The position numbers were made by a program, and so were the translations under genes. Source: a virus. From it: a stretch of DNA of 64,000 bases. Where the stretch lies: the IMG/VR virus record IMGVR_UViG_3300030447_000318; one strand, written 5' to 3'. The notes beneath the pieces are model-generated. The model saw only the letters and a program-made list of their open reading frames with translations. It had not been told where the DNA came from and ran no database searches. Positions 1,586 to 63,960 of the stretch are shown here, piece by piece. The stretch's first letter is position 1. Every line of letters starts with the position of its first letter.

Positions 1586-2371
1586 CTACTCAAACACCTT
1601 TACAAACTTCTCATAGTTACCATCTCTACCATTTGGAACAGCAAATACAACAGTATCGAAGCATTTATGAATAGTAGTTAAATATTCTTTAAATACATTC
1701 GCTACTTCTGTTGCATCTTGACCAAAAACCCCACAACCATAAGCTCCTAAAATAAGAGTGCTCACATTATTATCTTTTGCCATATCAAGAACAAATTTAA
1801 TTCGACTTCTTAATACTTTAGTATTCTCTTCGTCTGACACGTTCTGATATTTCTGCGCAACCGACTTATTTGGAGCAGCACAAGTAATAACGCTACACTC
1901 TATGTGGCTATTCTCTCTAAAGAACCAAACACCAGGAGAAAATAATCCTCTGTTCAAATATAAAGCCTTATTCTTGTGTCGATTATTCCAATCATAAAAC
2001 TCTAATACAAACTGACTCAACACATTGTACAAGAATGATTCGTGACATAAGCACTCTTCCTGTGCCTTACTACCATTTAGAAACATTCCACCTGGATTTT
2101 TATATGAAGAAAAATTAAGAACTGCTGTACTTGGATTGCCGTATTTCATTACAGCGCCTACACTATCAATATTCTCTACAATAATCTTGGTATCTTTGTC
2201 TTCGATATCCTCTTCAAAATCCCTATTAAATGAATCTGTATCATAAATTTTTGTTGCAGAAATAGCAGTCTGAATACAACGACCATATTTATTCTGCATC
2301 TCTTTTGTATGTTTGCGAGCAGTTTCTGCTCTCTGTTCTTTATTCTGCCAATATTCTTTTATATATGCCAT
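1586..2371 (-). CDS. macro-domain / bacterial-type PARG-like protein (TIGR02452/DUF2263-like)
   Basis: C-terminal signature ...TLILGAYGCGVFGQDATEVANVF... matches the LGAWGCGVFGNDP motif of TIGR02452 macro-like proteins. Confidence 0.55.
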   Translation of the reverse strand: MAYIKEYWQNKEQRAETARKHTKEMQNKYGRCIQTAISATKIYDTDSFNRDFEEDIEDKDTKIIVENIDSVGAVMKYGNPSTAVLNFSSYKNPGGMFLNGSKAQEECLCHESFLYNVLSQFVLEFYDWNNRHKNKALYLNRGLFSPGVWFFRENSHIECSVITCAAPNKSVAQKYQNVSDEENTKVLRSRIKFVLDMAKDNNVSTLILGAYGCGVFGQDATEVANVFKEYLTTIHKCFDTVVFAVPNGRDGNYEKFVKVFE

Positions 2372-2677: not shown

Positions 2678-3604
2678 TTATTCTCCAAAAATAATCTTCT
2701 TAGCCCAATTCATAGTTGCAGAACCACACATCTTACCAAAGAATTCACCAGCTTCGATAACTAATTCATTCTCTTCTTTTACACAATCCTCAAAAATTCT
2801 CTTAGGTAGATTCTGTACAACAATTCTCATGTCCTGTGGCTCAATCTTTTGAGGTAAAACACCCTCATCAATCATTTTGTATAATTCTTTTTGAACACGA
2901 TTCTTTGTGACAATCTGCTCTACAATTTCAGAAGTCTTTGCTTTAGCTGCTAATTTCTGAGGATCTTCTACTTTCTGTCTGTGATTATCTTTCTTGATTT
3001 CACTAAGCTGTGAATTTACAATCTTTAATACAAATGGAGTTCTTGAGTTTAGGTTGTTAAGTTCTGTCTGATTCTTAACGACAATTCCTTCAGGTACATC
3101 AACCGCAATATCTGACTTGTGCATAAATGACATACAATGCTCCCAAGAGATAAACTCTCCATCATAAAATGTCTGAACATATCTCAGATTTAATTCATCA
3201 GCAAGTCTCTTAACCTCTGATTGAGGTAAATAACATTCATTCTTTTTGTCATATACATCGTAAAAATATGATTTACCATAAGCTTCTGGAATATATTTAA
3301 TAGTATGTTTTGTAAGCCACTCCATGAAAAATACATAATTTGGATATTTTTGAAATGGTTCAACTGCCAATGTCTGTACCCAATTCCAGAATCCATTTAA
3401 TGTGTTGTTATAATCAAGAGTCTGCCTTCTCGAAAATGCAACTAACTTATTTGTTTCTTTATCATAAGCAATAGCTGAATTGCTTCCATCTACCTTTTCC
3501 TGAATTACAATATGATCTCCTACATGGAAACCACCTGTATTCGCTACTGTTAATTCCGTATCTTCCTTAATACGTGAAATATCCATAAATTTCTTCTGTT
3601 CCAA
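2678..3604 (-). CDS. ATP-dependent RNA ligase (Rnl2-like nucleotidyltransferase)
   Basis: Motif I EKVDGSN (KxDG lysine adenylation site), motif IV-like EGIVVKN and motif V-like VLKIVN. Size 308 aa. Confidence 0.55.
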   Translation of the reverse strand: MEQKKFMDISRIKEDTELTVANTGGFHVGDHIVIQEKVDGSNSAIAYDKETNKLVAFSRRQTLDYNNTLNGFWNWVQTLAVEPFQKYPNYVFFMEWLTKHTIKYIPEAYGKSYFYDVYDKKNECYLPQSEVKRLADELNLRYVQTFYDGEFISWEHCMSFMHKSDIAVDVPEGIVVKNQTELNNLNSRTPFVLKIVNSQLSEIKKDNHRQKVEDPQKLAAKAKTSEIVEQIVTKNRVQKELYKMIDEGVLPQKIEPQDMRIVVQNLPKRIFEDCVKEENELVIEAGEFFGKMCGSATMNWAKKIIFGE

Positions 3605-13315: not shown

Positions 13316-13864
13316 CTATCGAAGATAATTCTTTAAGAAATATTCAAAATATTCTCTGATAAACAGTCCTGAATATTGATTATTTGGCATAAACATAACT
13401 GGAATATTATATTTAAACCAAAAGCTGTGTATTGATGCAATAAATGATTTTCGATTGTACTTCGTATCATAGTTCCCTATTGCTATATCTTCATAAGAAG
13501 CGTTTTCGATTAGCAATACTTTGGTCTTTGGTGCAAGACATAATTCTTTTTCAAATCTATCACGCTCTTTTGTCAGATTACCACTTATCTCTTCAAGACT
13601 TGCTTTTCTCTCAATGACACATGAATTTGTAAAATACAAATCACGAAGTATTCCAAGCTTTTCATTAGCTGGTATCATGAATGAATAATCACCATAGCTT
13701 AAAGCTTTCTTTTTATATTTAATTTCTTTTCTATCAAAATAATCTGTGATGTGGGAATTGACTTTTTCTCTTGTGTCAACAAGGATTACAATGGAAGATA
13801 TTAACTCTTCCATTTCCTTATCTGTGTACTTATATTTGTTAAATATCGTCTTCGTCCTCCTCAA
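13316..13864 (-). CDS. ERCC4/Mus81-type nuclease-like protein
   Basis: The motifs VDTREK...GDY...ERK lie in the order and spacing typical of ERCC4-domain nucleases. Confidence 0.45.
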   Translation of the reverse strand: MRRTKTIFNKYKYTDKEMEELISSIVILVDTREKVNSHITDYFDRKEIKYKKKALSYGDYSFMIPANEKLGILRDLYFTNSCVIERKASLEEISGNLTKERDRFEKELCLAPKTKVLLIENASYEDIAIGNYDTKYNRKSFIASIHSFWFKYNIPVMFMPNNQYSGLFIREYFEYFLKNYLR

Positions 13865-16800
13865 TATCGTTTTTTATTACAAATTTACTCAACCAAAATT
13901 CAAATTTATCGGGTACTTCTTTATAAATTTTCTTACCTGTAACTGGATTTATTTCACCAGTTGGCTCTTTTTTATTCTTCTTTTCAAGGGAAATAATATA
14001 TAAGATTAAACCTTTATTGAACGGGTTACGATTGTATGCACTTGTCCACATTTTGACTGTTCGTGTCTTACCACTATAAATCTCAAATAGAGTAATTGTT
14101 GTAAGATATTTCGTAGAATTAATGTCTGATACATAATATAGTCGTTTGTTAGCTGTTGGCTGAGTATAAGACACATATCCATATAATTCTTGCTGATAAT
14201 TAAAAATATCTAAAATAGAAGTCTCTTTATAATCCACATTCTTTACAATATCTTTTAACAACGATATTGAATCAAAATCCTTCCAGATTTTTTCTGTTTG
14301 TTTTTTACAGTGAGATTTAACAATATCTTTAGGTAATCCCAATTCTTCAAGTTTATCTATCTTGAATTGTTTTTTACCATACACCTTATCAAAATAATCT
14401 GTTTGAGCAAGTAGAGTATTTATTTCACCAAACTCAGAAAAGAAATTCAATTTAATCAATATCTCTAATTGTTTGGAATTAACAGAAGTATTTTTTATAT
14501 CAATAAGCAAATCTATAAAATCGTTGTACTTCTTATCTTTCAAAGTGTACAAATCATCTCCAACATTATCGCCGATATACTTAATAGACGACATTCCTTT
14601 GTATATGGTATTATTCTCTTTATTGTAAGAATATTTTGATGTTGAGTATCTAAATTTAATATCGCTCAATTTGATATTGAAATAATCCAGTTCCTTTTTA
14701 AGCTTATTTGTTCTTACTTGATCATCTGCGTAATTATTGAAACATACACTGTAATATTCAAGTGGATAATTAACCTTTAAATATGCACCATAACACATAT
14801 CAAGAGATGTGGCTGCCGCATGAGCACTACAGAATCCATAACTCATACAGCTCTGAATCATTTTCCAAGTTGTATCAAACCCACCCTCTGAACCAGTATT
14901 GATTATCCATTGTTTTCTGATTCTTTCTTCGAGATTAGCAAAGTCTTCTGGTTTTATTTTCTTTTTAGATATCTTTTTGATTAATCCAATAGACTCAGCA
15001 GGTGTTACACCAAGCCAATCAAAATATTGCATTAAAGACTCTTGGAATAATATATATCCATGTGTATCACTTAAAACTTCGTCCAATTGTTCTGAACCAG
15101 TTGTATAATCTTCTCGATTTAAAAATTGCTCTCTCCATGAGTCAAACGATGGTCTGATAGCTGCCGTTAAGTGAGCACCATCTTCAAATGAGGACACTTT
15201 ATATCTTTTTGCTTGTTGCGATCCATTGTCGCTATCCACCTGATTAAGAGTACAGGTTATTCCATTCTTAAATAAATCCCATATTCTCTTATCATCTTTG
15301 ATAGATTTTAACAACTCATTCGCTGTAATAATCGGTTTTCCAATCTCTTTAAACGTTTCATCAATTAATTTCCAAACCTTGACGATTAGATAGTCGTTTT
15401 TAAGCACTTTGTATTCATCAGCTTCAGATGATGTTATTAATACACAAAGATTTTCTCCTAACCTAGTTACACCATATTCGTATAATAAATTCTTATCGCT
15501 TAGAATGTGGGCGCAGGGATGTACTGAACCAGATACGATTGTTCCTACATATTTATTCGCTTCTTCTATGATTGGTTTCCATTTTTCATCATTTTCATAA
15601 GCTTCAAGATTTTTTGCTACATCATTAAATTCATCAAAATCCATACCTTTTGAACGACATACATTTCTAAATGCCTCTGAAATCTGCATAGTTCCAGGTG
15701 CATACATTGGATAACAACCATGCTCTCCCAATAATTCTCTTGAAGCTTTAACGAATGGCTCTTGACTTTTAACATTAAAATCAATATCTGGGAGGGAACG
15801 ATTTTCTAATAATCGAGCAGTGGAAGCAAATCTATCAGGGAAAAGTGGAAGATTAATTTTAAATCTATCAAGCTGAGTCATTCCCAATATTCTATTTATA
15901 TAAAAAGAACCACAGCTACCTCTTCCACCTCTTGTAAGTACTCCACCATATTTATTTACTGCTAAATCAACATTTTTCTCATTAAATAGGAAATAATCTG
16001 CCGTATGAACTTTATCATTTGTATCCTCTATGATTTTCATTTCATATCGAATACCATCTCGGTATCTTTTAAAATCATCATCAGATATATTTTCTTGTTC
16101 TCTAATGACTTTAAATCGCTTGTTGATTTCTTTTTTGAGGAGTTTTACACGCTGATTTGGCGTAAGATTTGGATAGATGGTTGGCATCTTGATAGAATAG
16201 TCAAGTTTGATTTCTTCACAATTATCAAATATCAGAGTATTATTAATCGCATCATCAATTTGTTTATCTGACAAAACATTTTGTTTTTTGAATCTCTCTA
16301 TCATTGTCTCAGCAGTTGGATAATCTAAAATAAAATCATCCTCACTACCATAATTAATATGTTTACCTTTTAATAATTCAAGACGTTCTTGTTTGCCTTC
16401 TTCGTTAATATAATGGGAATCATTGGCGGCAATCAATGATAACCCGTATTCATCCGAAAAATAAATAGCTTTTTTGTTTATCTCTATCTGAATGGGATCA
16501 AGATGAGTTTGGACTTCAAGCATTACATTATTGCCAAAATGTTTAAATAATGGCTTAAATATTTTTTCAATTGAATCCTCATCTCTCAAAAGACCTGCTA
16601 CGCAGGCAGTTGTAATATACACATCATCCCTATCCAAAGCAAGTAAATCCTTCATAAAAAATCTTGGTTTATAATAAAATCCATTGATATTCGCCATACT
16701 TGAAACATAATTCATCTTTTTTCTTGCTTCATCAGTTTTTGGAATTACAATAATATGGTAATTCCTTTTATCTTTCTCAGAAGCGTCTGGTACAATATAT

Positions 16801-17010
16801 CCTTCAATTCCTGCTATACACTTAATACCGTACTTATTACAAAGAGTCTTTGCCTCAAATATATCGCCAAACGAGCCGTGGTTTGTCGTATAATAACTTG
16901 TATGACCATATTCAAGTGCTTTCAAAATATATTCTTCTTGCTTGGTGTTTGTATCTGGCGAAAAAATATTAGAGACATGATCATGTTTATGATAATTGTT
17001 ATATCGCATA
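13839..17010 (-). CDS. dnaE: DNA polymerase III alpha-type (DnaE-like) replicative polymerase with N-terminal PHP domain
   Basis: N-terminal PHP motif (YHKHDHVSNIFSPDTN...HTSYYTTNHGSF). Pol III alpha palm motif GRGSCGSFYINRILGMT. Size about 1050 aa. Probable start is MRYNNYH (RBS aggagaatcaat), not the longest-ORF start. Acidic C-terminus EEDEDDI. Confidence 0.8.
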
Positions 17011-17673
17011 TTGATTCTCCTCTGATATAAATCCAAACTTCCATCCCTTGTGTGTCTTTTTTGAATGATTAGCAACTTGTCTTACGCAATTACCAAGTAA
17101 ATCATGTTTTTTAGCAAATTGATTAGCATTGTCAAAATTATAGATATTTCCATCTGGATCAATTCCATAATACGTTCCTTTATCAGCTTTTCTATGTTGA
17201 CAAGTTTTATTGGCTTTTGCTGTGTTTTCACTTTTAGTTATCCATTGGCAATTACTAGGTTCATAATTGCCATTCTCATCAATTCTATCTATAGTTAAAC
17301 CATCTTTATATTCATTATTAATTGCCCATAGATAAAAATTTTCATATCCATTTTCCCCAAGCCATTCTTCGCATAATACAACTCCTTTGCCACCGTAATT
17401 ATGGAATTCATGCATATTAGGGTTATAACATCTATATTTCATATTGGCATATACAGAATATAATTTTTCATTTTTATTTTCATATTTTCTTAATTGACAA
17501 ATACAAGATGTATGTTTTCCATGATGTATTTCATAGGCTTTACATGTTTTAATATTTCCACATATAATACATTCTGTCGTTGCCATTTCTACACCATCTT
17601 CATTTTTAAATACTTTAAGGAGTTTTCTGATTCCATATATTTTACCAATCTCATAAGTATATTTTTTATTCAT
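16999..17673 (-). CDS. HNH homing endonuclease
   Basis: Cys cluster CIICGN...HHGKHTSCIC plus the HNH_3-like GLTIDRIDENGNYEPSNCQWITKSEN. Inserted between the polymerase and exonuclease genes and overlaps the polymerase start. Confidence 0.6.
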   Translation of the reverse strand: MNKKYTYEIGKIYGIRKLLKVFKNEDGVEMATTECIICGNIKTCKAYEIHHGKHTSCICQLRKYENKNEKLYSVYANMKYRCYNPNMHEFHNYGGKGVVLCEEWLGENGYENFYLWAINNEYKDGLTIDRIDENGNYEPSNCQWITKSENTAKANKTCQHRKADKGTYYGIDPDGNIYNFDNANQFAKKHDLLGNCVRQVANHSKKTHKGWKFGFISEENQYAI

Positions 17674-17676
17674 ATA

Positions 17677-19293
17677 TCAATCCACCTCCTCAATCTCATC
17701 ACATATAACCTTTAGCGAAAACTTCTTACCAAGCCAGCCACTATTTAGCGTTCCAACAACCTGTAACTCATCATTCATTAAACTATGTTCATCCATCTCA
17801 TCAAACGAGCCATTAAAATTCCACTTGATAATTTGTAGATAATCATTTGGTTTTATTACAAGATGTTTATAGTCACTCATTTGACTGATTTCATATTCAT
17901 CAATACCATCAATAAATACTTTTACAGGCTTAAAATTTGTACCAGATATTTTATCTATCTTCTTTATATTCTCCACAAGCTTGCGAGTAACATCCGAAAT
18001 ATTAATCTGGATATCTACATCTATAGAGGTGTCAGATTCCAATTCTGGAAGAATTTCTTCTATATATAATACAAACTTATCAATGTCAGATTTTTTTATA
18101 GTAATACCACTTGCTAATTCATGCCCATCTGCTTTTGCAAAACCACTGTCGTTACAAATCTGGCGAAAATCATCTACCCCAATTGCTCGCATTGAACCAG
18201 AAAATGTATCCTTAGTGTCTTTTAGAACAAGAATAGGTTTTTGATACCTTTCCAATAACTTATTTCCAAGTAATCCACTAACCCCATAAGGTGTATCTAT
18301 ATATGTAATAATCATCTTCTTATCTGACTGAGCATTACATTGTTGTAATATATCTGGTAATAGTCTATCTACTTCCTTGTTTTGATCTTCCTTACATTTC
18401 TTTAGTTCTTTTACATAGGCTAAAACTTGTTTATTTTCATCTTCTAAAAATGCTTTCATAGCAATTTCATTTTTACCCATGCGATTACTTGCATTGACAA
18501 TTGGTGCAATGCTGAATGAAATAGCGGTACTATTAAACTCAAAGCCACCAACAATTTTCTTAACTGCTGGATTATATATCTTCTCTAATCCCTTAGATAC
18601 AATATATCTATTCTCCATAACAGTCATATCCATCATATCTCCAACAAGACCACATGCGGCTAAATCAACAAGTTCATCTGCATAATCTGTAAGATATTGT
18701 TCATCAAGATATTTACAAAACTTCCACACAACACCTGCACCTGATAGTTGAGTATTTTCATAATTCCTCTGGGAAGATACAAGAATTACATAATCATCAT
18801 ATGATTCTTTCTCTTTAATTGCATGATGATCGAGTACAATTACATCTACTCCCATTTCTTTTAATAACTTATATTGAGATATATCTTTATCCAAACTATC
18901 TACAATAATAAGTAAATCAATGTCTTCAAACTGAGATAAATTTTGCCCAATCAAACCATGCATTTTACCCTCGTCAATATAAGTTTTAATGTTATCAGTA
19001 GAATGTCTGAAATACCTAGTCATTATTGTTCCTGATGTAATTCCATCTAAATCTGTATCAAATAAAATTCCAATACACTCATTATTTACAATCGCTCTAT
19101 CTACTCTTTGATATGCTTCGTCAATACGAAGTAATGAATCTAGGGGAAGCAAATCATCTTCTGTAGGAGTCAAAAAATGTTCAACGTCATTAATTCCTCT
19201 TTGACTTAAAATCGTATCAAATACTTCATCCTCATACATCCCACGACAATCATTTAGTATTCTATAATTCGTCTTCGTCATCTTCATCTCCAA
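17677..19293 (-). CDS. RecJ-like DHH-family single-strand exonuclease
   Basis: DHH-family motifs DTDLDGITSG, VIVLDHH and GLVGDMMDM. Size 538 aa. Confidence 0.65.
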   Translation of the reverse strand: MEMKMTKTNYRILNDCRGMYEDEVFDTILSQRGINDVEHFLTPTEDDLLPLDSLLRIDEAYQRVDRAIVNNECIGILFDTDLDGITSGTIMTRYFRHSTDNIKTYIDEGKMHGLIGQNLSQFEDIDLLIIVDSLDKDISQYKLLKEMGVDVIVLDHHAIKEKESYDDYVILVSSQRNYENTQLSGAGVVWKFCKYLDEQYLTDYADELVDLAACGLVGDMMDMTVMENRYIVSKGLEKIYNPAVKKIVGGFEFNSTAISFSIAPIVNASNRMGKNEIAMKAFLEDENKQVLAYVKELKKCKEDQNKEVDRLLPDILQQCNAQSDKKMIITYIDTPYGVSGLLGNKLLERYQKPILVLKDTKDTFSGSMRAIGVDDFRQICNDSGFAKADGHELASGITIKKSDIDKFVLYIEEILPELESDTSIDVDIQINISDVTRKLVENIKKIDKISGTNFKPVKVFIDGIDEYEISQMSDYKHLVIKPNDYLQIIKWNFNGSFDEMDEHSLMNDELQVVGTLNSGWLGKKFSLKVICDEIEEVD

Positions 19294-21066: not shown

Positions 21067-22626
21067 TTATTTTATCTCTCCATGCTTAAATCTCGCTTGC
21101 GCAACTTCCCTAAAGATACAATGGTCGCCGTCGTAACGTAATAGATATCCAATTCCATTATCGCTTGAATTAGCACCACTACGACATTTCTCTATAAATA
21201 TTGCTCTCCAAACCGCATTCGGATCTGGTTTATATTCCTCTTCTATCCATTTATCATTAACCCTTTTAAGTCTAAATGGACGACAATAATATTTACTCTT
21301 CTCATCTAATTCTTCTGCATATACAGTCCTCATTAAGAATAAATTCTCTAATATCTCTTTGATCTGCTTAGAATTGCTCAATGCTGAAGCGTCTAAGAAT
21401 AACTTACCCTTCATGTATTCAGCTAACTGAACGGAGGCAAGCATTATAAGATTATATTTTTTTGCAAGTTTATCTAACTCACGACTATCTCTTACAAGTG
21501 CCATATCTTGTCTTGTTGTTGAAAAGTCACCTTCTTGGATTTTAAATGTGTCATATAATACCGTGTCATATCCATATCTTAAAACATTCTCACGAATTTT
21601 TTTCTTAATAACTCTCATATCAGCATCATTAATAGAAATAAATTTGACTCTTCCTTTATAATTATCTCTCCAAAATTTCTGAACATCAGATAATTGTTCT
21701 CTACTCTCAGTATTGATATCACCAGCAGCCATTTTTTTCTTAGTAAGTTTAAAATATCTATTACGCTTACCCAATAACCAAACCATGAATTTAATCTTAA
21801 ATTTCTTTATGCTCTCTTCATTGGATATAATAAGAATCTTTCTGTCATAATGCAGAAGTGCCATAAGAACTGTAATCCACCATGTAGATTTACCCGCACT
21901 AGAGAAACCACCCATCATAGTAAGTGTCCCTTCAAGTAACCCCATTATCTGTCGTGATAGAAAAGGAAAACAATTCATTTCCTCCCCATTTTTATCATAT
22001 CCTGCTATATCAAATGGAACACCATTCTCTTCACCATCTTTACAAGATTCAATAAATTCATCATCAAAATCTATTTCTTCCTCTTCAAGAATCTTGCTAC
22101 TATATCCTGTACCATAACTGGATATACGAGCTTCATACCAATCTGTGACTTCTTCAGCAGTCATTTTTCTAAATAGTTTTAATGGGATTACCTTTTTATC
22201 TCCTACAGTTATTTCTTGCAGAAGATTAAAACCATCTTTATACATGTTCATCATAATATTCTCTCTGTAAAGAATATCTATGTATGTGTCAAAATTCTGA
22301 GTATTGATAATATCAATTTGGTGCTGAATTGCTTCCCAACCACCTTTATCCTCAAATTTTTCAATAACTTCTTGATTCGTATTAGACAGAATGGTAATTT
22401 CATCAAGAGAGTAAAAGCCTTTCTTTCGTAAATTTTTCAATAACGAAAAATAAAAAAGACCATCTGCTGTAACAAAATCTTTCTGCTCAAATGTTGTATC
22501 ATCAAGTAGAAGCATATCTTTGAAAAAACAACTAATGACATTACCCTCTATTTCAATCCTACCTTTTAATAATTGAGCAGGATACTTTTCTTTCACGCCT
22601 GTAATAAATTCACTTATGTCAATCAC
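21067..22626 (-). CDS. dnaB: DnaB-family replicative DNA helicase
   Basis: Walker A GGFSSAGKSTW, a Walker B region and an N-terminal helical DnaB-like domain. Size 519 aa. Confidence 0.7.
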   Translation of the reverse strand: MIDISEFITGVKEKYPAQLLKGRIEIEGNVISCFFKDMLLLDDTTFEQKDFVTADGLFYFSLLKNLRKKGFYSLDEITILSNTNQEVIEKFEDKGGWEAIQHQIDIINTQNFDTYIDILYRENIMMNMYKDGFNLLQEITVGDKKVIPLKLFRKMTAEEVTDWYEARISSYGTGYSSKILEEEEIDFDDEFIESCKDGEENGVPFDIAGYDKNGEEMNCFPFLSRQIMGLLEGTLTMMGGFSSAGKSTWWITVLMALLHYDRKILIISNEESIKKFKIKFMVWLLGKRNRYFKLTKKKMAAGDINTESREQLSDVQKFWRDNYKGRVKFISINDADMRVIKKKIRENVLRYGYDTVLYDTFKIQEGDFSTTRQDMALVRDSRELDKLAKKYNLIMLASVQLAEYMKGKLFLDASALSNSKQIKEILENLFLMRTVYAEELDEKSKYYCRPFRLKRVNDKWIEEEYKPDPNAVWRAIFIEKCRSGANSSDNGIGYLLRYDGDHCIFREVAQARFKHGEIK

Positions 22627-23111: not shown

Positions 23112-24257
23112 CTAATTCATCATATCGTAGATTCTTTTTAATCCATCCTCATCAACATCATTGAGTTTACCATACTCAGCAATTACATTCTTGACTGATG
23201 CCTTGAGTTCTGCATCATTGCATTCCTTATACATCTTACGAATAACAGCATCTAAATCGTCTGGATATGTAGGTATTTCAACCACTTCCTCTGTTGTCTC
23301 TTCGATTGGTGTATCAATGTCGTCAATATCATCCTCAATTAGATCTGGCTCTACTGGCTTTTCTTTCTTAATTGGGACTGTCTTCTTAGGAGTATTCCCA
23401 GCCTTCTTCTTAGAATTCTTAATAGCATCCTTTAATGCTCTAAGAAGTTCATCAGCATCAAGTGGAATCTCTGGCTCGATTGCTGCTAAACGAGACTTAC
23501 TATCAATGCTGTAGTTATCATCTCTAAATACAATTTTTCTTTTCTCTTCCTTAACCTTACTAACAGTAACATCTTTCTTTGTAACAATATTCTTTCTACC
23601 AGTTGACTCAATATCAATAGTTCTGTCGATACAAGCAATACCGATTACATGGAATTTTGTCTTAAATCCCTCGAAAATTCTCTGAGAAATATCTGTTGAG
23701 AGAACTGAATACTCTTCCTGTGTAAGTGGATCTACTTTATTTCTCATCTTAACATGTCCAGTAAACCATGTATTTACACCAACCTTCTTGAGCTCCCATA
23801 CTCTATTAAGTGCTAACTCAACAAGCTTATCATCAGCCTTACCAAAACCAGACCACGCAGCATTCATGGTTTTGGCTGGCTCAAAATTCTTTTTACCCAT
23901 ATTCTCTGTATTCCAAAGCTTAATGACATATGGTGTCATAATCTCTACAAACTGATCGAGAGTATCAATAACAATAACTTTTAAATCTGGATAATCAGCG
24001 TCTTTGTTTTTAATAATATCCTTAGTTACGTCATCAAATTTCTTCCAATCTTCGCAAGTCTCATATGAATAACCTTCAAGAGCTTCCATACCTTGTTCTT
24101 TACCCATATCAAGAATCATGTAACCGTCAGCACCAAACTCTTTTTCACAAGCCTCGGCAATTGTTGATGTTTTACCAATACCTGCCTCTCCAAGTAAACA
24201 AATTGTAAAATCATTTAACTTCTCACTAATCGAACTTCTTTTTCCGTATTTTGCCAT
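23112..24257 (-). CDS. phage AAA_24/Sak4-like ATPase
   Basis: Walker A GEAGIGKTS near the N-terminus and Walker B IVIDTLD. Long acidic C-terminal extension. Confidence 0.6.
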   Translation of the reverse strand: MAKYGKRSSISEKLNDFTICLLGEAGIGKTSTIAEACEKEFGADGYMILDMGKEQGMEALEGYSYETCEDWKKFDDVTKDIIKNKDADYPDLKVIVIDTLDQFVEIMTPYVIKLWNTENMGKKNFEPAKTMNAAWSGFGKADDKLVELALNRVWELKKVGVNTWFTGHVKMRNKVDPLTQEEYSVLSTDISQRIFEGFKTKFHVIGIACIDRTIDIESTGRKNIVTKKDVTVSKVKEEKRKIVFRDDNYSIDSKSRLAAIEPEIPLDADELLRALKDAIKNSKKKAGNTPKKTVPIKKEKPVEPDLIEDDIDDIDTPIEETTEEVVEIPTYPDDLDAVIRKMYKECNDAELKASVKNVIAEYGKLNDVDEDGLKRIYDMMN

Positions 24258-30057: not shown

Positions 30058-30087
30058 TTTCTTATTCTCCTTTCTTACTGTAAATAA

Positions 30088-30160
30088 CAGGGCTAATCGG
30101 ATTCGAACCGATGAATGCAGAGATCAAAACCCTGTGCCTTACCACTTGGCGATAGCCCTA
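30088..30160 (-). tRNA. tRNA-Gln (anticodon UUG)
   Basis: Minus-strand sequence AGGGCTATCGCCAAGTGGTAAGGCACAGGGTTTTGATCTCTGCATTCATCGGTTCGAATCCGATTAGCCCTG folds as a cloverleaf. It has a 7-bp acceptor stem, U8, A14, GG in the D-loop, anticodon loop TTTTGAT (anticodon TTG) and a GGTTCGAATCC T-arm. No encoded CCA. Confidence 0.8.
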
Positions 30161-36224: not shown

Positions 36225-36884
36225 TTATGTAAATAAAATAGAAATATTTCTATAAGCTTTTAATCCTTCAATTGAATCTAAAAGTTCTTTTCTATCTATC
36301 TTTAATATTCTCTCAATTTCACTGTATGTATAACCTCGTAACAGCAATACTGCCACCTTCTTTTGTTTGTCAGACAAATGTTCTAAATATTCATCCAGCT
36401 TTTCGCTTGCTTTTCCAAAGCACTGTTTGTGGACATCGAAGTCAGATTTAAGTCCACTGAGATAATTCTGAACCTTCTTAGTAGGATTCTCCAAAGATAT
36501 GTTCTTAACAAAAACATCATTGCCTTCATCATCTTTCATAACTACACTTCTCTTTTTTCTGTTTCTATCTCTTATGTATGTAGAATATAATCTCTTCTTT
36601 AATGAAGAAACTAGGAATGGATGAAACTGACATATCTTTTCGTTATAATTTAAAAGACTATCTAAGAATACAACTTGTGCCAAGCTATACAAGTCATCAT
36701 AATCCTTTTGGCTTATTCCACCAATCTTAATGATGATTGGATAACAAGTTTGTTTTAGCTTCTGCATATTATTGTCACAATACTGGTGCACAATTTTCAT
36801 TTGCTCACCAGTTAAGTTAGAATATTTTTTACTTTCCATTAAATCAAAACCTCCTTTACTTATCACTATTCGCTTTTTGTTCAC
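36225..36884 (-). CDS. sigma-factor-like transcription regulator (region-4 HTH)
   Basis: C-terminal LLLRGYTYSEIERILKIDRKELLDSIEGLK resembles sigma-70 region 4 or LuxR-type HTH. Confidence 0.45.
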   Translation of the reverse strand: MNKKRIVISKGGFDLMESKKYSNLTGEQMKIVHQYCDNNMQKLKQTCYPIIIKIGGISQKDYDDLYSLAQVVFLDSLLNYNEKICQFHPFLVSSLKKRLYSTYIRDRNRKKRSVVMKDDEGNDVFVKNISLENPTKKVQNYLSGLKSDFDVHKQCFGKASEKLDEYLEHLSDKQKKVAVLLLRGYTYSEIERILKIDRKELLDSIEGLKAYRNISILFT

Positions 36885-38283: not shown

Positions 38284-38682
38284 TTATTCACTCACTCCTT
38301 CTATGTTGCATATATAAGCATTATAAATTTGTTGCTTATATTTTTTATCTGTTATTTTTCCTCTATAATCTAAAATTCTACTCTTATCTACTTGACGAAC
38401 AGCTTCGCCTAAAACAATACTATCTTCTGTTAAAGCAGATATAAATTCGCTTTTAAGGAGGACATGTGTTGGTTGTTTTAAACTTTTCTTTTGAGAAGTC
38501 AATGGCAATACGATTGTTGTCGGACTATAATAATTTCCAATATTATTCTGAATAACCACAGCAGGTCGAATGCCTCCTTGTTCACTTCCAATTGGGACAT
38601 CGCCAAAATCAACAGTAACAATATCATATGCCTTAATTTTTATTTCTCGTTTACATTTATGTTCTTTTTTACTCTCAACCAT
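38284..38682 (-). CDS. mazF: MazF/PemK-family endoribonuclease toxin
   Basis: VDFGDVPIGSEQGGIRPAVVIQNNIGNYYSPTTIVLPLTSQ...QPTHV aligns closely with MazF/EndoA. Confidence 0.75.
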   Translation of the reverse strand: MVESKKEHKCKREIKIKAYDIVTVDFGDVPIGSEQGGIRPAVVIQNNIGNYYSPTTIVLPLTSQKKSLKQPTHVLLKSEFISALTEDSIVLGEAVRQVDKSRILDYRGKITDKKYKQQIYNAYICNIEGVSE

Positions 38683-39029: not shown

Positions 39030-39815
39030 ATGCTGATTAGCGAAAAATTTGAGCTTATTAGAAAAGCGAACAATTTAACAAAAATGAAGTTCTGTGACAA
39101 AGTAGGAATGTCTCGATCTCATTACGACAGTTTACTTGCTGAAAAAAACAGCGATAAAATTATCAATAAGACTACCAATATATCTATAATCAATAGCATA
39201 TGTTATTTATTTAATGTGGATAAACAATGGTTGACTAATGATGAAAGCAATATTGATTTTTTTGATAAAAAATTTAATCAACAAATTGTTGATAATTATA
39301 TGTTGCTGTCAGAAGCAAGCAAAAATATTGTTGATAATCTTATTGATGGTTTATTGGAATTAAATAACAATCAACCGTCAACTACTCAACAGCCAGTAAT
39401 CAGATTAGCTGTATATGACCAACCAGTATGTGCTGGTAATGGTAACTTCATTACGGACGCAACAAAAACATTTAAGGATTTCCCTAATGCCCCGTCTGAT
39501 GCTGATTTCGCAGTTAGAGTTCAAGGCGATTCCATGACACCTGCTTACAACGATGGTGATTTAGTGTTTGTTAAATCTACCGACACATTGAATAACGGAG
39601 ATGACGGTATTTTTATCGTAGATGGCGATATAACGCTAAAAAGATTTATGGGTAATGAATTAATCCCATTAAATCCAAAATACTCTAAAATAAGCCAAAA
39701 AGCTATAATTCAAGGCAAAGTGGTTGGCATCGCAGAACATCACTCTGATTTAGAGGCTGAAGTTTTAGATATTGTAAACCAAGACAAGCCGCAAAACTTA
39801 AAAAAATCTATTTAA
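39030..39815 (+). CDS. cI/LexA-like repressor (N-terminal HTH plus C-terminal S24 peptidase)
   Basis: N-terminal HTH. C-terminal VRVQGDSMTPAYNDGDLVFV...LKRF (Ser/Lys dyad). Confidence 0.7.
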   Translation: MLISEKFELIRKANNLTKMKFCDKVGMSRSHYDSLLAEKNSDKIINKTTNISIINSICYLFNVDKQWLTNDESNIDFFDKKFNQQIVDNYMLLSEASKNIVDNLIDGLLELNNNQPSTTQQPVIRLAVYDQPVCAGNGNFITDATKTFKDFPNAPSDADFAVRVQGDSMTPAYNDGDLVFVKSTDTLNNGDDGIFIVDGDITLKRFMGNELIPLNPKYSKISQKAIIQGKVVGIAEHHSDLEAEVLDIVNQDKPQNLKKSI

Positions 39816-40286: not shown

Positions 40287-40336
40287 TAACCAATATTCTG
40301 TATATAATAGCCTTATGTATTTTACAAAGGCTATTT

Positions 40337-40624: not shown

Positions 40625-41737
40625 TTACTTTCGCCCATACATATCTGCATTTACTTCAGCTTGCCAATAGTTATGGCTAGTAGTATAAGAATTAAACAAC
40701 ATAGCAATCAAATAGGCTTTAATGTTTTGAATTCTAGTTGGATTTTCCTTTAACGCCACTATCACATACTCTATATGGTCGTATTTCAACTTCCAGAATC
40801 TTTGTTGCACAATTGTACTTGGATATTTCACTCCAGAAATCATATAAGTTGTGCTATCAACAGTTACAACTTCTGTCATGAGTTCAACTATCTCATCAAT
40901 GATTTCTTTGTCGTTAGGGTAAGAGATTATTAAATCGCTATAACCTATATTTTGTTTTATGATTTGACATAAACGAATATAATCTTGTGCCGCATACTTT
41001 GGTTGTCTTTCTCTATCTATCAATCCACCTCTTATGTTATTAATATTATTATAGTTAGGTTGATAGATTGATTGTTTAATACTTAATTGTTTAGTATTTA
41101 ATTCTTTAGTATTTAATTGTATGCGGTTTTCCATATCAGGAAATCCCCTATCTTGGTTATCCATATCTGGGAAATCAGGATATGGATGAGATACCAGTAA
41201 ATCTGCACCTTTCAAAGGACAACTTTCTTTTTCGCTTATGTAATCTTCAATCGAAATATTGTCAGCCACATTTAAATTTTTAGTATCATCATAATGTATA
41301 TCATTTGTATTAAAATCACCATCTTTTTCTTCGATTTGTTTAACATTAGTATTATTATTTTTAACACTATTATTAACATTATCTTCATTAGTATTTTCGG
41401 AATTAGTCTTATTATCATTACAATTAGTAGCCTTTTGAGGTTCGTCATAAAGTGTATAATCCACATCTAAAATTTTGCCTTTATCATCTCTAATTGTAGT
41501 TCTAATTAAATAACCCAATTCTTCTAATTTTTTTAATCCACTTGTAATGGTTGTTCTACCATCTGGTAAAATTTGATTTAATCCATTAATAGAAAAATCC
41601 CACTCAGATGGCAAACTTAACATTGTTATAAGCAAACCTCTTGATTTAATATCTAAATTCATATCTCTTAATATTGAGTTGTTAACAATTGTGAAATTAT
41701 TTTTTAGTTCTTTCTTTAGTATGCCCATAACAAACAT
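40625..41737 (-). CDS. RepA_N-like replication initiator / replisome organiser with low-complexity N-rich linker
   Basis: N-terminal winged-helix pattern (NNSILRDMNLDIKSRGLLITMLSLPSEWDF...LKKLEELGYLIRT). Asn-rich linker. C-terminal helical domain. Confidence 0.45.
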   Translation of the reverse strand: MFVMGILKKELKNNFTIVNNSILRDMNLDIKSRGLLITMLSLPSEWDFSINGLNQILPDGRTTITSGLKKLEELGYLIRTTIRDDKGKILDVDYTLYDEPQKATNCNDNKTNSENTNEDNVNNSVKNNNTNVKQIEEKDGDFNTNDIHYDDTKNLNVADNISIEDYISEKESCPLKGADLLVSHPYPDFPDMDNQDRGFPDMENRIQLNTKELNTKQLSIKQSIYQPNYNNINNIRGGLIDRERQPKYAAQDYIRLCQIIKQNIGYSDLIISYPNDKEIIDEIVELMTEVVTVDSTTYMISGVKYPSTIVQQRFWKLKYDHIEYVIVALKENPTRIQNIKAYLIAMLFNSYTTSHNYWQAEVNADMYGRK

Positions 41738-41759: not shown

Positions 41760-42719
41760 TTATACTATCCTGAGTTTATTCGCCATATTTATAGCTGTTT
41801 GATACTTATCTACATCATCAGTAAGATACCTAATAATTTTTCCTAAATCATCAGATTTTAAGGAGATAACAGGCATATTCTTGACTATTTCATCACCTTT
41901 ACCAGCCAATACATTGTGGATAAACTCACCATGGTCATCAATCAACTGTCTATTTTTCTCTTCTGTTAAACCGATGTAATTCATAGTGATTTGCAAATCT
42001 GTATGATTAAACAGTTTCTGCAATGATAACAAACAATCGGGGTCAAATGGATGTGTCTTATGAATCCAGTAACCAAAACTCTTACGAAGAGAGTGAGTGC
42101 TTACAGCGTATTGTATATTCGCTGCTTTAACTGCTTTGTTTAACTTCTTTCTGTAAACCTCTGTCTGCTGTTTTACAACATCGTTATATTCGACTACATA
42201 ATAAAGATAATCTCCAAGAGATAAGTATCTTTGCTGTTTATTAAAGTCTTTGATTATTTTCTCTTTTCTATCTTCTGATATAGTCTTATTTAACGCTTTA
42301 CACCAAAGTTCTATATCGTTTTTACTGTATATATCCAAGCCTTTTCTCTTTATCCAGTTCGTTTTAGGAATATACTCGAAGATATATTCGTTGTAATGTT
42401 TCTTTATATCAACATCTACATTCTCCAAGTATTTATCTAAGGCTTCAAATACAGTATTACTTATAGGGAGATTAGTAACTTTTCCTGTTTTTTGTTCTTC
42501 AATTGTATTTATTTCTCTTTTTCTGCTTCCGTTTTCGTAGTATATATCAGACCATTTCATCATTACTGTATCTCCAATTCTTCTACCAAGCAGGAGTTCT
42601 AACATTGTAATGAGATAACCATCCCATTCATGGTTATTTTCAAACCATTCAACTACATTTCTAATGTCTTCCATTTTCCAAAACGGATATACTTCAGTTT
42701 TCTCTTTTCTTTTTGTCAT
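41760..42719 (-). CDS. int: tyrosine site-specific integrase
   Basis: Catalytic-region motifs HSLRKSFG and ...ITMNYI (Tyr). Size 319 aa. Confidence 0.7.
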   Translation of the reverse strand: MTKRKEKTEVYPFWKMEDIRNVVEWFENNHEWDGYLITMLELLLGRRIGDTVMMKWSDIYYENGSRKREINTIEEQKTGKVTNLPISNTVFEALDKYLENVDVDIKKHYNEYIFEYIPKTNWIKRKGLDIYSKNDIELWCKALNKTISEDRKEKIIKDFNKQQRYLSLGDYLYYVVEYNDVVKQQTEVYRKKLNKAVKAANIQYAVSTHSLRKSFGYWIHKTHPFDPDCLLSLQKLFNHTDLQITMNYIGLTEEKNRQLIDDHGEFIHNVLAGKGDEIVKNMPVISLKSDDLGKIIRYLTDDVDKYQTAINMANKLRIV

Positions 42720-51173: not shown

Positions 51174-51445
51174 TTTATTCCTCCTTTGTATACATTATTT
51201 CTTATTGCATTTATGATCCAAATGTGGTTTATAAAATAATCCACATTTATCACATTTACATACTGTGGTCTGAGAATTAATATTATTTCTAAACCACTTT
51301 TTTGTATTTTTATCATATATGTTTGACACGACTACTCCTCTTTTCTAAAACAGATAAAACTTTAATTGTTTTTAAATTTAATTTCCCTATCTTCTAACCA
51401 ATCAATTAATGGAGCAAAATATGCTTGTGGCATTTTTATTTTTAA

Positions 51446-62186: not shown

Positions 62187-62585
62187 TTATTTTTGTAAGT
62201 ATTTTTGAACAAACTTTGGAAGTTCATAATAATAGTAATCATATTCATCCTCAATCTGTTCAGCCTGAATTTCTCCATAGCTAGACCATTCATCTATGGT
62301 AATTCCATATTCTTCGTCTAACCATTCAGCAAATGATAGTTTGCCTTCCTTATTAGGAGTTGGAATGTTTTCAATATCAAAGTTCGTCTCTTCAATATTG
62401 TACCAATCCATTTCCCATTTTCCGTCTTGAAGTTCATAGATACTGACGCATCCATTGCACTCCCAAGTGCTTGTGGCGATGGGATTACCTGTTTCAGTAT
62501 TGACACCGTACCAAAAGCCCTCTTTGAGGGTAAAACCGTAATATTTGGCAGTTTCAAAGTCTGTCATTTCCTTTAATTTAAGCAT
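62187..62585 (-). CDS. hypothetical protein
   Basis: 132-aa ORF with RBS aaggagg. A conserved 5'-UTR hairpin lies upstream. Confidence 0.45.
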   Translation of the reverse strand: MLKLKEMTDFETAKYYGFTLKEGFWYGVNTETGNPIATSTWECNGCVSIYELQDGKWEMDWYNIEETNFDIENIPTPNKEGKLSFAEWLDEEYGITIDEWSSYGEIQAEQIEDEYDYYYYELPKFVQKYLQK

Positions 62586-62738
62586 AATTGCCTCCTTATG
62601 TGAGAGTCCTCACCCCAAATATTTTTATACGCATTTGGGTTGCGTTTATTATGTATGGATATTAGTTTCCCTTTATGTAAAGGTACTTACGGCGAGAACC
62701 ACGAGAAGGTTTCCAACACTCCCACCATAAGGCAAAAA

Positions 62739-62951
62739 TTAATTTGCCTTTTCATCATCTTCATCTTCTGTGTGACGGCGTAATGATACGCCTTTTTTGT
62801 TGATGATTACATCGTATTCACCATCACAAAAGTCCTTCATTAGACCTTCTGTAATGATAGATAGAGGTAAACCATAACTGTTTTTACAACAGTCTTTGAA
62901 TTCTTCAAAAAGCGTTTCTTCTAGGCTTATGTTTACATTTTTTGTTGCCAA
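62739..62951 (-). CDS. hypothetical protein
   Basis: 70-aa ORF. Confidence 0.4.
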   Translation of the reverse strand: MATKNVNISLEETLFEEFKDCCKNSYGLPLSIITEGLMKDFCDGEYDVIINKKGVSLRRHTEDEDDEKAN

Positions 62952-63021
62952 TTAGACCACATCCTTTCAATATGTTTTTCTATTATTTTAACACAGTTTT
63001 AAAATAGTGTCAAAATGTAAA

Positions 63022-63366
63022 TTAAAAGTCTGTAATCCAATCTCCTGTTTCCCAGGCTTCCCAAACTTTCAACAGTTCTTTTCTGTTCGACTCTTTTATT
63101 TGTTGAATAAAGTTGTTAAAATATTCTATTGGTAGTCTAGGAATAATTGGGTGTTTTTCGTGTTCTGTTGGAATCCATTCTTCATCATCTACAGAACGCA
63201 AAGCTATATCTATCCTCCCTTCGCCCACTATTAACTGGTCGGCAAAAATAGATACAGTGCAATTTTTGCATTGATATTTTAAATTTATACCATCACCTTT
63301 AGAAGCTCTCTGAAGTATTATTGTTATTCCTTCAGCATTTAAATCGTTTAAAGATATTTTATTCAT
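63022..63366 (-). CDS. hypothetical protein (start MNKISLND)
   Basis: RBS ctaggagg before the internal ATG. Confidence 0.4.
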   Translation of the reverse strand: MNKISLNDLNAEGITIILQRASKGDGINLKYQCKNCTVSIFADQLIVGEGRIDIALRSVDDEEWIPTEHEKHPIIPRLPIEYFNNFIQQIKESNRKELLKVWEAWETGDWITDF

Positions 63367-63408
63367 TGGTATCCTCCTAGTATTCGTTTTTTTATGACGC
63401 AAACCCTC

Positions 63409-63609
63409 TTACATTATTACACCTTTTTCTTCTAAGCATAACAATAAAAAAGAAAGTGTATTCAAGTTATGGTTTTTCATAGTTGTATACACTTCATAAA
63501 TGGCATCATAATCAGCCTTAAAAGCTTTTTTGATACCATTTAAAAGCATTTCATCTATATTGTTGTTATCAATGTCACAATAAATTATGACAAATTTTTT
63601 AATTGACAT
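63409..63609 (-). CDS. hypothetical protein
   Basis: 66-aa ORF with RBS aaggagg. Preceded by conserved hairpin elements. Confidence 0.4.
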   Translation of the reverse strand: MSIKKFVIIYCDIDNNNIDEMLLNGIKKAFKADYDAIYEVYTTMKNHNLNTLSFLLLCLEEKGVIM

Positions 63610-63741
63610 AATAGCCTCCTTATAGGTAATTCTACCCCTTGCATATTTTTATACGCTTGCAAGTAGCGTTATTTTTTGGCTTGTCATCATCAGTAAACAA
63701 GTAGCCAACTTGTATAGACTAGGCTTTATGCCTAGTTTCGA

Positions 63742-63960
63742 CTATTCGTCATCTTCTAACGGTGTTTCTTTATCAGGTACAATCATACCATCACTATTGA
63801 TTTTTGCTGTACCTACTTCTAGCACAAGATTATTTTTCGCGTATTCAAGTGCTAGTTCGTGCGTTTCAAAAATAATGATGTGCTTTTCAGCTGGCATCAT
63901 ATCTAATACGCACTTTTCAATCTTTATATAGCCGTACACTTCTAGCCCACCTCCTTTCAT
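63742..63960 (-). CDS. hypothetical protein
   Basis: 72-aa ORF. Confidence 0.35.
   Translation of the reverse strand: MKGGGLEVYGYIKIEKCVLDMMPAEKHIIIFETHELALEYAKNNLVLEVGTAKINSDGMIVPDKETPLEDDE

Follow-up and report, generated by a model that had tools for sequence, protein, structure and literature searches.

A conserved pseudoknot and hairpin in the mRNA leaders of small orphan genes of SPbeta-like phages from gut Clostridia

Background

Small pseudoknots in mRNA leaders are a known kind of RNA element. The gene 32 mRNA of phages T4, T2 and RB69 contains a leader pseudoknot that serves as an autogenous translational operator (see also PMC535899). In Bacillus subtilis, the aprE, ermC and SP82 leaders are stabilised by 5' structure together with ribosome binding. 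The preQ1-I riboswitch (RF00522), finally, is a tiny H-type pseudoknot with a first helix of 5 bp, an A-rich third loop along that helix and a second loop (L2) which holds the ligand-pairing cytidine, and it lies directly 5' of the Shine-Dalgarno (SD) sequence in Firmicutes; its type III aptamer does without sequestering of the SD. A compact preQ1-I pseudoknot located up to 10 nt from the SD represses translation sterically (PMC10018353). Here we describe an element of about 50 nt that occurs twice in a stretch of 64,000 nucleotides of viral DNA (IMG/VR virus record IMGVR_UViG_3300030447_000318; at its full length referred to as the window) and that we regard as a new family of this known kind, the small leader pseudoknots.

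Hardly any work exists to our knowledge on large temperate SPbeta-like phages from gut Clostridia, and we know of no account of how their early genes are controlled. A fold of about 50 nt by which a few orphan early genes would be marked for shared post-transcriptional control is a cheap and concrete experimental handle in such phages, a candidate for a new Rfam family and possibly a portable translation-control part for Firmicutes. If factor binding or RNase resistance of the element were true, it would moreover represent a new mechanism in phage early-gene regulation.

Results

Two copies of the element and their fold

A sequence-only reading of the window had noted one motif upstream of two minus-strand genes and had described it as a promoter or 5' untranslated region (UTR) hairpin with an invariant loop and covarying stems. 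Both copies of the motif are present as described. Copy A reads AACGC-A-A-CCCAAAT-GCGTATAAAAAT-ATTTGGG-GTGAGGACTCTCAC-ATAAGGAGGCAATT-ATG and copy B reads AACGC-T-A-CTTGCA-A-GCGTATAAAAAT-A-TGCAAG-GGGTAGAATTACCT-ATAAGGAGGCTATT-ATG, in each case ending with the start codon of the gene that follows (Table 1). The exact 13-mer GCGTATAAAAATA has two sites in the window, which are those in copies A and B, and an unfiltered covariance-model (CM) search of the 64 kb also returned these two copies only (76.9 bits for B and 72.2 bits for A), the next-best match being one of 18.6 bits within an open reading frame (ORF).

A structure with a conserved loop is borne out, but it is not a simple hairpin. Since the GCGT of the presumed loop pairs with the upstream ACGC (ACGCW...WGCGT is by itself an inverted repeat that is picked up by a simple terminator scan), and since this pairing covaries, the fold is an H-type pseudoknot, in which the 3' strand of the first helix (S1) sits in the former loop while the loop of S1 holds the 5' strand of the second helix (S2). 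Throughout the family S1 has 5 bp with the consensus ACGCW/WGCGU, the first loop (L1) is one nt long, S2 consists of 6-7 bp of free sequence abutting S1, L2 is missing and the third loop (L3) is an A/U-rich stretch of 9-11 nt, which would cross the minor groove of S1. In the window copies S2 has 6 bp and L3 is the 9-nt AUAAAAAUA. What had been noted as GG-N13 downstream of the stems is a second covarying hairpin, P3, with 4-5 bp and a GNNN loop, after which the SD follows.

Table 1. Positions of the element copies, their parts and other features in the window; entries with an L prefix lie in a contig of a relative
Feature	Position	Strand	Remarks
Copy A, whole element (S1 first base to start codon)	62583..62645	-	CM 74.9 and 72.2 bits
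Copy A, S1 5' strand ACGCA	62641..62645	-	pairs with 62629-62633; S1 also predicted by RNAalifold
Copy A, L1, single A	62640	-	A in 19/22 distinct sequences of the alignment
Copy A, S2 5' strand CCCAAA	62634..62639	-	pairs with 62614-62619
Copy A, S1 3' strand UGCGU	62629..62633	-	start of the loop first described as invariant
Copy A, L3 AUAAAAAUA	62620..62628	-	holds the -10-like TATAAA
Copy A, S2 3' strand UUUGGG	62614..62619	-	
Copy A, P3 hairpin GUGAG-GACU-CUCAC	62600..62613	-	
Copy A, SD tract AUAAGGAGGCAAUU	62586..62599	-	AUG at 62583-62585
Acidic 132-aa protein after copy A	62187..62585	-	family most often preceded by the element
Copy B, whole element (S1 first base to start codon)	63607..63669	-	CM 81.7 and 76.9 bits
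Copy B, S1 5' strand ACGCU	63665-63669	-	
Copy B, L1, A	63664	-	
Copy B, S2 5' strand CUUGCA	63658-63663	-	
Copy B, S1 3' strand AGCGU	63653-63657	-	
Copy B, L3 AUAAAAAUA	63644-63652	-	
Copy B, S2 3' strand UGCAAG	63638-63643	-	
Copy B, P3 hairpin GGGUA-GAAU-UACCU	63624..63637	-	terminal G·U pair
Copy B, SD tract AUAAGGAGGCUAUU	63610..63623	-	AUG at 63607-63609
66-aa protein after copy B	63409..63609	-	
Similar first codons	62574-62582, 63598-63606; L064:391-402, 3202-3213		
PARG	1586-2371		
RNA ligase	2678-3604		
Pol III alpha	13839-17075		
DHH/RecJ-like protein	17677-19293		
DnaB	21067-22626		
AAA_24 protein	23112-24257		
LexA/CI-like S24 protein	39030-39815	+	
DUF6017/HTH replication-type protein	40625-41737		
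Tyrosine integrase	41760-42719		

Covariation and strand of the fold

Covariation was counted on 22 distinct sequences of the element (351 pair cells, 17 pairs). MAFFT alignments put P3 in the wrong register and CM-based alignments were used instead. Canonical pairs fill 98.3% of the cells as opposed to 72.1 ± 1.5% with shuffled partners, and when the 3' partners are slid by 1-3 columns pairing drops to only 23-54%. Double, compensatory changes are found at 13 of the 17 pairs and amount to 91 cells where 24 would be expected, and they occur in all three helices (6 of 7 pairs in S2, 5 of 5 in P3 and 2 of 5 in S1). The covariation of the stems that had been noted from two copies is therefore real, and the independence of these changes among the 22 sequences speaks against the possibility that the differing stems go back to just two copies which arose by recent duplication. 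The core of S1 (C-G/G-C/C-G) is invariant across the 22 sequences; its outer pairs covary, one from A-U to U-A and the other between U-A, A-U, C-G and U-G. S1, which the CM structure did not include at any stage, is 100% paired, and S1 and P3 were predicted unaided by RNAalifold from a plain MAFFT alignment with flanks. On the same flanked alignment RNAalifold predicted no conserved helix with the SD, the start codon or the flanks and no alternative pairing. An alternative pairing of L3, of UAAGU or CAAGU with ACUUR, was considered as well; it is present at the loci L020 and L026 and is not general. The stabilities of the helices are about -4.6 to -7.9 kcal/mol for S1, about -3.1 to -5.9 kcal/mol for S2 and about -4.4 to -6.5 kcal/mol for P3, and nested-only prediction of the minimum free energy structure does not reliably recover the fold.

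Pairs other than Watson-Crick pairs comprise 11 G·U, 1 A·C, 3 U·C, 1 U·U and 1 A·A. With G·U far above A·C, it is the sense strand that folds, and hence the mRNA. Judged by the compensatory changes and by this asymmetry, the element is thus shown to be a conserved structured sense-strand RNA composed of a pseudoknot and a hairpin. Conservation extends to unpaired positions: L1 is one nt long in all sequences and is an A in 19 of 22, L2 has 0 nt in 21 of 22, L3 reads AUA(U)nAARUA and the P3 loop begins with G. The loop that had been called invariant is so among the close relatives only, and the AUAAAAAUA of the window is a minority variant within the family.

Relatives and distribution

More copies do exist in related phages. 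The 22 distinct versions of the element come from many contigs of related phages, prophages and metagenomes, with 1-3 copies per genome. Scanning of IMG/VR with the exact pattern yielded five close phage contigs of 78-139 kb, each of which has the same two copies; the downstream protein is 79-83% identical in these contigs and the element is essentially unchanged. Homologues of the 132-aa protein with identities as low as about 50% were traced to their contigs and provided further members, and the element is absent from protein homologues at about 45% identity. A pattern scan of GTDB genome DNA added two contigs of metagenome-assembled genomes (MAGs): L064, from an uncultured Eubacteriales MAG of mouse gut, which has three copies within 3.5 kb ahead of three different genes, and L067, from a rumen Lachnospiraceae MAG. 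Additional pattern scans of IMG/VR for members led to the same lineages only. With the two covariance models, R1 and R2, true members score 45-83 bits and the background stays below 19 bits. These models replaced loose structural descriptors, the matches of which were mostly noise at about twice the level of shuffled sequence. Many relatives have a single copy, ahead of one small gene.

Two observations concern the surroundings of individual copies. In L064, two of the three copies are preceded by a shared conserved block, about 50 nt in length, that contains a hairpin GCCCATAAG...TTGTGGGC (L064:280-330 and L064:3470-3520), so that the duplicated unit there exceeds the element. In L067, a sequence resembling a tRNA T-arm, GGGATCGAATCC, with CTTGT/ACAAG flanks lies about 10 nt 5' of the element (L067:3735-3760).

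Genome and transcript context

The window has about 30% GC and nearly all of its genes lie on the minus strand, the two copies being located near the start of a unidirectional gene arm of more than 60 kb. A relative of 144 kb encodes a YonO-like single-chain RNA polymerase of the RdRP family (L024:1-543, minus strand) in addition to YonV_C, ParB_N and DUF3825 proteins, which together (the polymerase, YonV_C and ParB_N) place the group among the SPbeta-like temperate phages. The genes of all four are divergent in strand from the operon that bears the element, with an intergenic region of 1.8 kb in between. Close relatives are found within contigs of 247-634 kb too, and this, along with the integrase and the S24 repressor, points to integrated prophages. 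The elements thus lie in the first kilobases of a long early/replication arm in SPbeta-like temperate phages and prophages of gut Clostridia.

A uniform promoter scan was run over all element types. Predicted sigma-A-like starts lie 0 to -3 nt from S1 in L020, L036 and L037, at -17 in L093 and at -40 to -52 nt in L026, L064b, L067 and L094, and no such promoter was predicted inside the element in any type scanned. The only strong promoter between copies A and B is a near-consensus sigma-A promoter (TTGACA-17-TAAAAT with TG, 63013-62985, minus strand) ahead of a 70-aa ORF (62739..62951). In L032, the element begins about 10 nt past the stop codon that ends the preceding ORF. It thus forms a leader, either at the 5' end or between cistrons. 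The only neighbour that it has throughout is the SD, which follows P3 by 1-5 nt, and the distance from the end of P3 to the AUG is 12-17 nt in every type.

Stable hairpins lacking a U tract precede both window copies by about 70 nt, each after the stop codon of the upstream ORF (62729-62750, stem AAGGCAAA...TTTGCCTT, and 63718-63736, stem ACTAGGC...GCCTAGT; both minus strand). Among relatives the loop of the latter varies and its stem is kept.

Two self-cleaving ribozymes are encoded near copies in relatives. A pistol ribozyme lies about 150 nt downstream of one copy (L064:526-599, plus strand; 61.1 bits versus a gathering score of 34.5), and a twister-P5 ribozyme about 1.3 kb upstream of another (L020:6587-6657, plus strand; 37.7 bits versus 37.6). 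At the Rfam gathering score no self-cleaving ribozyme is found in the window. The element itself was considered as a small self-cleaving ribozyme (pistol, twister, hatchet or HDV-like) and rejected, since no such CM matches it and its order S1a-S2a-S1b-S2b-P3 lacks the P3/P1.1 core of the HDV ribozyme.

Genes downstream of the element

At least five unrelated small orphan genes are served by the element. Apart from the two in the window, these encode a 134-aa protein in L026 and, in L064, a Cys-rich poly-Glu protein of about 53 aa and a protein of about 89 aa. None of the downstream proteins has a Pfam, PHROG or NCBIfam match. The AlphaFold2 model of the 132-aa protein is of moderate confidence (pLDDT 68.6) and has no fold match, and homologues of its family were found neither in isolated phages nor, by protein search, in GTDB representative genomes. 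In otherwise unrelated genes the first codons after the AUG are alike (AAATTA/AAAATA-rich, encoding MLKLK, MSIKK, MRKLD and MRKIE). It may be that the conserved module continues past the AUG by a few codons, or that gene starts are simply biased towards A.

Comparison with described RNA elements

Rfam 15 contains nothing that overlaps either copy up to E = 10 (positions 62400-63900 of the window) and nothing at the elements of seven divergent loci up to E = 1; at the gathering score the whole window yields a tRNA-Gln only. No prior description was found in the literature text searched or in the first 200 of the 408 supplement files of PMC8040213. PMC10690425 is a catalogue of more than 10,000 phage RNA candidates, which may list the element without a name.

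In size and topology the element comes close to preQ1-I, with which it shares the tiny H-type pseudoknot with a 5-bp first helix, the A-rich third loop along this helix, the position by the SD and, as a compact fold in this place, the potential to block initiation sterically (PMC10018353). It differs from preQ1-I in that it lacks L2, and with it the ligand-pairing cytidine, and has a longer S2 (6-7 bp as compared to 3-4 bp), in that the additional P3 separates the pseudoknot from the SD, which lies outside the fold, and in that it precedes orphan phage genes with no association to queuosine or preQ1 synthesis or transport; nor does it match the preQ1-I CM. With the gene 32 operator it has in common that it is located in a phage mRNA leader upstream of the ribosome-binding site and that its H-type pseudoknot has coaxial helices and an L1 of 1 nt. 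Different from gene 32, however, where gp32 polymerises on a long A/U tract that follows the pseudoknot and is unstructured, the element continues directly with P3 and the SD. Moreover, whereas gene 32 is a single autoregulated gene for a single-stranded DNA-binding protein, the element serves several unrelated genes, the commonest product of which is strongly acidic and thus unlikely to bind RNA.

Discussion

The element most likely controls the translation or the survival of the messages that it precedes. Its structure is solid; its function is inferred. We tentatively favour the reading that it is a cis-acting mRNA leader that acts on translation initiation, as a translational operator or a steric gate. 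A 5'-UTR or translational operator was among the roles proposed by the sequence-only reading, and three covarying helices, G·U pairs on the sense strand and an AUG at a fixed distance of 12-17 nt fit this role. Since the SD is never sequestered, control would have to be steric or mediated by a factor. The coaxial stack of S1 and S2, with L3 in the minor groove of S1, and the P3 hairpin behind it would make up a compact structure that borders the 30S binding site on its 5' side, and this structure would set or gate the access of ribosomes, post-transcriptionally and in cis. The near-invariant nucleotides in single strands and in the S1 core sit on covarying scaffolds in front of unrelated genes, which is what is expected of a shared operator. 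These nucleotides would most likely be the recognition surface for a trans-acting factor, presumably a phage or host RNA-binding protein and less likely a small ligand. Under this factor the few early genes concerned would form a co-regulated regulon, with initiation blocked sterically and the SD left unsequestered. Regulon-like use of the element is indicated by the two copies in the window and in each close relative, by the three of L064 with their three different genes and by the copy of L026, which precedes a different gene.

Several points weigh against this reading. Translation control is inferred from position and conservation, and our analysis identified no candidate binding protein or ligand for the element. 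Its invariant parts need not reflect recognition in trans, as the G-C core of S1 and the adenines of L3 could be explained by minor-groove triples of the pseudoknot with no trans factor involved. The phylogenetic spread of the family is narrow, and part of the sequence conservation may thus be due to recent common descent. No promoter was recognised within 160 nt upstream of either window copy, so that these copies are probably internal to a polycistronic RNA. Finally, a degenerate copy in L092 (3905-3993) has kept AAGCGTATATCAAATA and P3 but no longer has a 5' strand for either S1 or S2. The replaced half of this copy is overlapped by an ORF of 15 codons with a GGAGG of its own.

Would the element act on the survival of the message instead? 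As an mRNA 5' stabiliser or processing barrier against 5'-end-dependent decay of the RNase J1 or RNase Y type, or as a stable processed 5' end, the pseudoknot would together with the hairpin and the strong SD protect the downstream cistron within a polycistronic early RNA. This is the main rival of the reading above, unlikely in our view but with several points in its favour. The predicted start lies 0-20 nt from S1 in L020, L036, L037 and L093, so that the element would be 5'-terminal there, and a strong SD always accompanies it, much as in the Bacillus stabilisers (aprE, ermC, the SP82 polypurine tract), which also combine 5'-proximal structure with a strong SD. In addition, the operon leaders that bear the element contain a pistol or a twister ribozyme in relatives, which makes processing of these RNAs plausible. 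However, the Bacillus stabilisers are simple hairpins or SD-like tracts with no known conserved sequence or pseudoknot, while S1, L1 and L3 of the element are nearly invariant. The element is not always 5'-terminal, as it begins about 10 nt past a stop codon in L032 and about 50 nt from the predicted start in L064b and L067, and a decay barrier would not need a fixed distance of 12-17 nt to the AUG.

It is rather doubtful, if worth considering, that the element goes beyond a passive operator and belongs to an undescribed functional class of phage RNA, be it a gated switch, an RNA that blocks RNase J or a self-processing RNA. As a gated switch it may, through a factor or a ligand, set the timing of a small regulon for host takeover as the phage passes between lysogeny and lytic growth. 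As an RNase J-blocking RNA it may be the bacterial counterpart of the exonuclease-resistant RNAs. Earlier classes of ribozymes were found by a guilt-by-neighbourhood approach, and in relatives of the window pistol and twister share leaders with the element.

A riboswitch of the H-type pseudoknot kind, in which the bound ligand would stabilise the fold by the SD and lower translation, appears improbable. It would account for the size and topology of the element, which resemble those of preQ1-I (a 5-bp P1, an A-rich L3 and a location directly 5' of the SD, in Firmicutes), and for the conserved unpaired nucleotides at the S1/S2 junction, namely the A of L1 and the AUA at the beginning of L3; besides, such a riboswitch can regulate without sequestering the SD (PMC10018353). 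Yet the riboswitch models of Rfam give no match at E ≤ 10, and with an L2 of 0 nt in 21 of the 22 sequences the two helices adjoin directly and offer no evident pocket. Furthermore, the unrelated small orphans downstream carry no metabolic or transport signature, and a conserved alternative pairing was not found in the family.

Two related copies of a cis-acting RNA with covarying stems close to the start of an early unit also bring to mind the put sites of phage HK022 and the nut sites of lambda. That the element is a put-like RNA for processive antitermination at the head of long early operons is nevertheless very unlikely. In its favour are the position of the two copies near the start of a unidirectional arm of more than 60 kb, the two structural modules of the element and the hairpins upstream of both copies (62729-62750 and 63718-63736). 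The tight distance to the AUG and the constant adjacency of the SD would be unexpected, however. The put and nut sites are not known to have a fixed relation to a ribosome-binding site or to contain a pseudoknot. Moreover, in many relatives there is one copy only, which precedes a single small gene.

Finally, the motif had been considered at the level of DNA, as a structured promoter or as a site for a phage sigma factor or another regulator with a -10 box in or between inverted repeats, and this we regard as highly improbable. Extracytoplasmic function (ECF) promoters have AAC at -35 and CGT at -10 with a spacer of about 16-17 nt, and that of B. subtilis sigma-W is TGAAAC-N16-CGTATA. The element shares AAC and CGTATA with them, the ACGC-N9-GCGT palindrome could bind a dimeric regulator, TATAAA lies within the loop and a weakly sigma-70/ECF-like protein is encoded in the window. 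The latter (36225-36884, minus strand, 219 aa) matches TIGR02937 with E 1.5e-8, which is below the cut-off, and sigma-H (PDB 3mzy) with E 9e-4 and has no Pfam match; on these matches, it is a possible sigma factor of the phage that would serve middle or late genes. But the TATAAA of the window copies is not conserved, other members having TATATT, TATATC, AATATT or TTTATG in its place, a -35 box is missing at 16-18 nt and no sigma-70-like promoter is predicted inside the element. AAC and CGT are present in 21 of the 22 sequences at a spacing that is not of the ECF type, being a short 12-14 nt that shifts with the length of S2, and in L020, the only member with an altered AAC, the change to ATC goes along with one of CGT to CGA that keeps the pairing. 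What else is conserved is structure: the sequences of S2 and P3 are free to change while the pairs persist, which DNA recognition would leave unexplained. A palindromic operator could mimic the covariation of S1, but neither that of S2 or P3 nor the U·G pairs by which the palindrome is broken in five sequences, and the large excess of G·U over A·C makes the fold strand-specific. A transcript starting from the -10 box in the loop would, in addition, leave the 5' strands of S1 and S2 untranscribed and thus their covariation unexplained. YonO is known to drive a single late operon (PMC5467207), and nothing links it to the element.

The scan for terminators flags ACGC...GCGT with a T-rich tail at 62629-62645 and 63653-63669 when the plus strand is read, but a plus-strand terminator or antisense RNA appears unlikely given the wobble asymmetry and a stem of just 5 bp, or 4 bp in members with a U·G pair in S1. 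No plus-strand gene converges there, and a terminator would leave the covariation of S2 and P3 unexplained. Hairpin promoters of the N4 type have a stem of 5-7 bp and a 3-nt loop, are extruded from supercoiled DNA and are read by the virion RNA polymerase; the S2 'loop' of 14-16 nt, interleaved helices that cannot both form in a cruciform and a G·U to A·C ratio of 11:1 argue against this possibility.

Other features of the window and its relatives

Perfect inverted repeats of 8-9 bp with A/T-rich loops of 12-13 nt lie elsewhere in the window at 38312-38341 (plus strand), 40306-40335 (minus strand) and 51220-51248 (both strands). A general class of hairpins with 12-nt loops and -10 boxes was considered and dropped, the 14 cases versus 6.7 expected being set against a general 1.5-fold excess of hairpins. 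The tRNA-Gln gene of the window has the anticodon UUG and is located at 30087-30160 on the minus strand. One relative has as many as four tRNA-like genes, of which three pass the Rfam gathering score and one falls just short of it, as well as an int-alpA RNA (L093:3683-4812).

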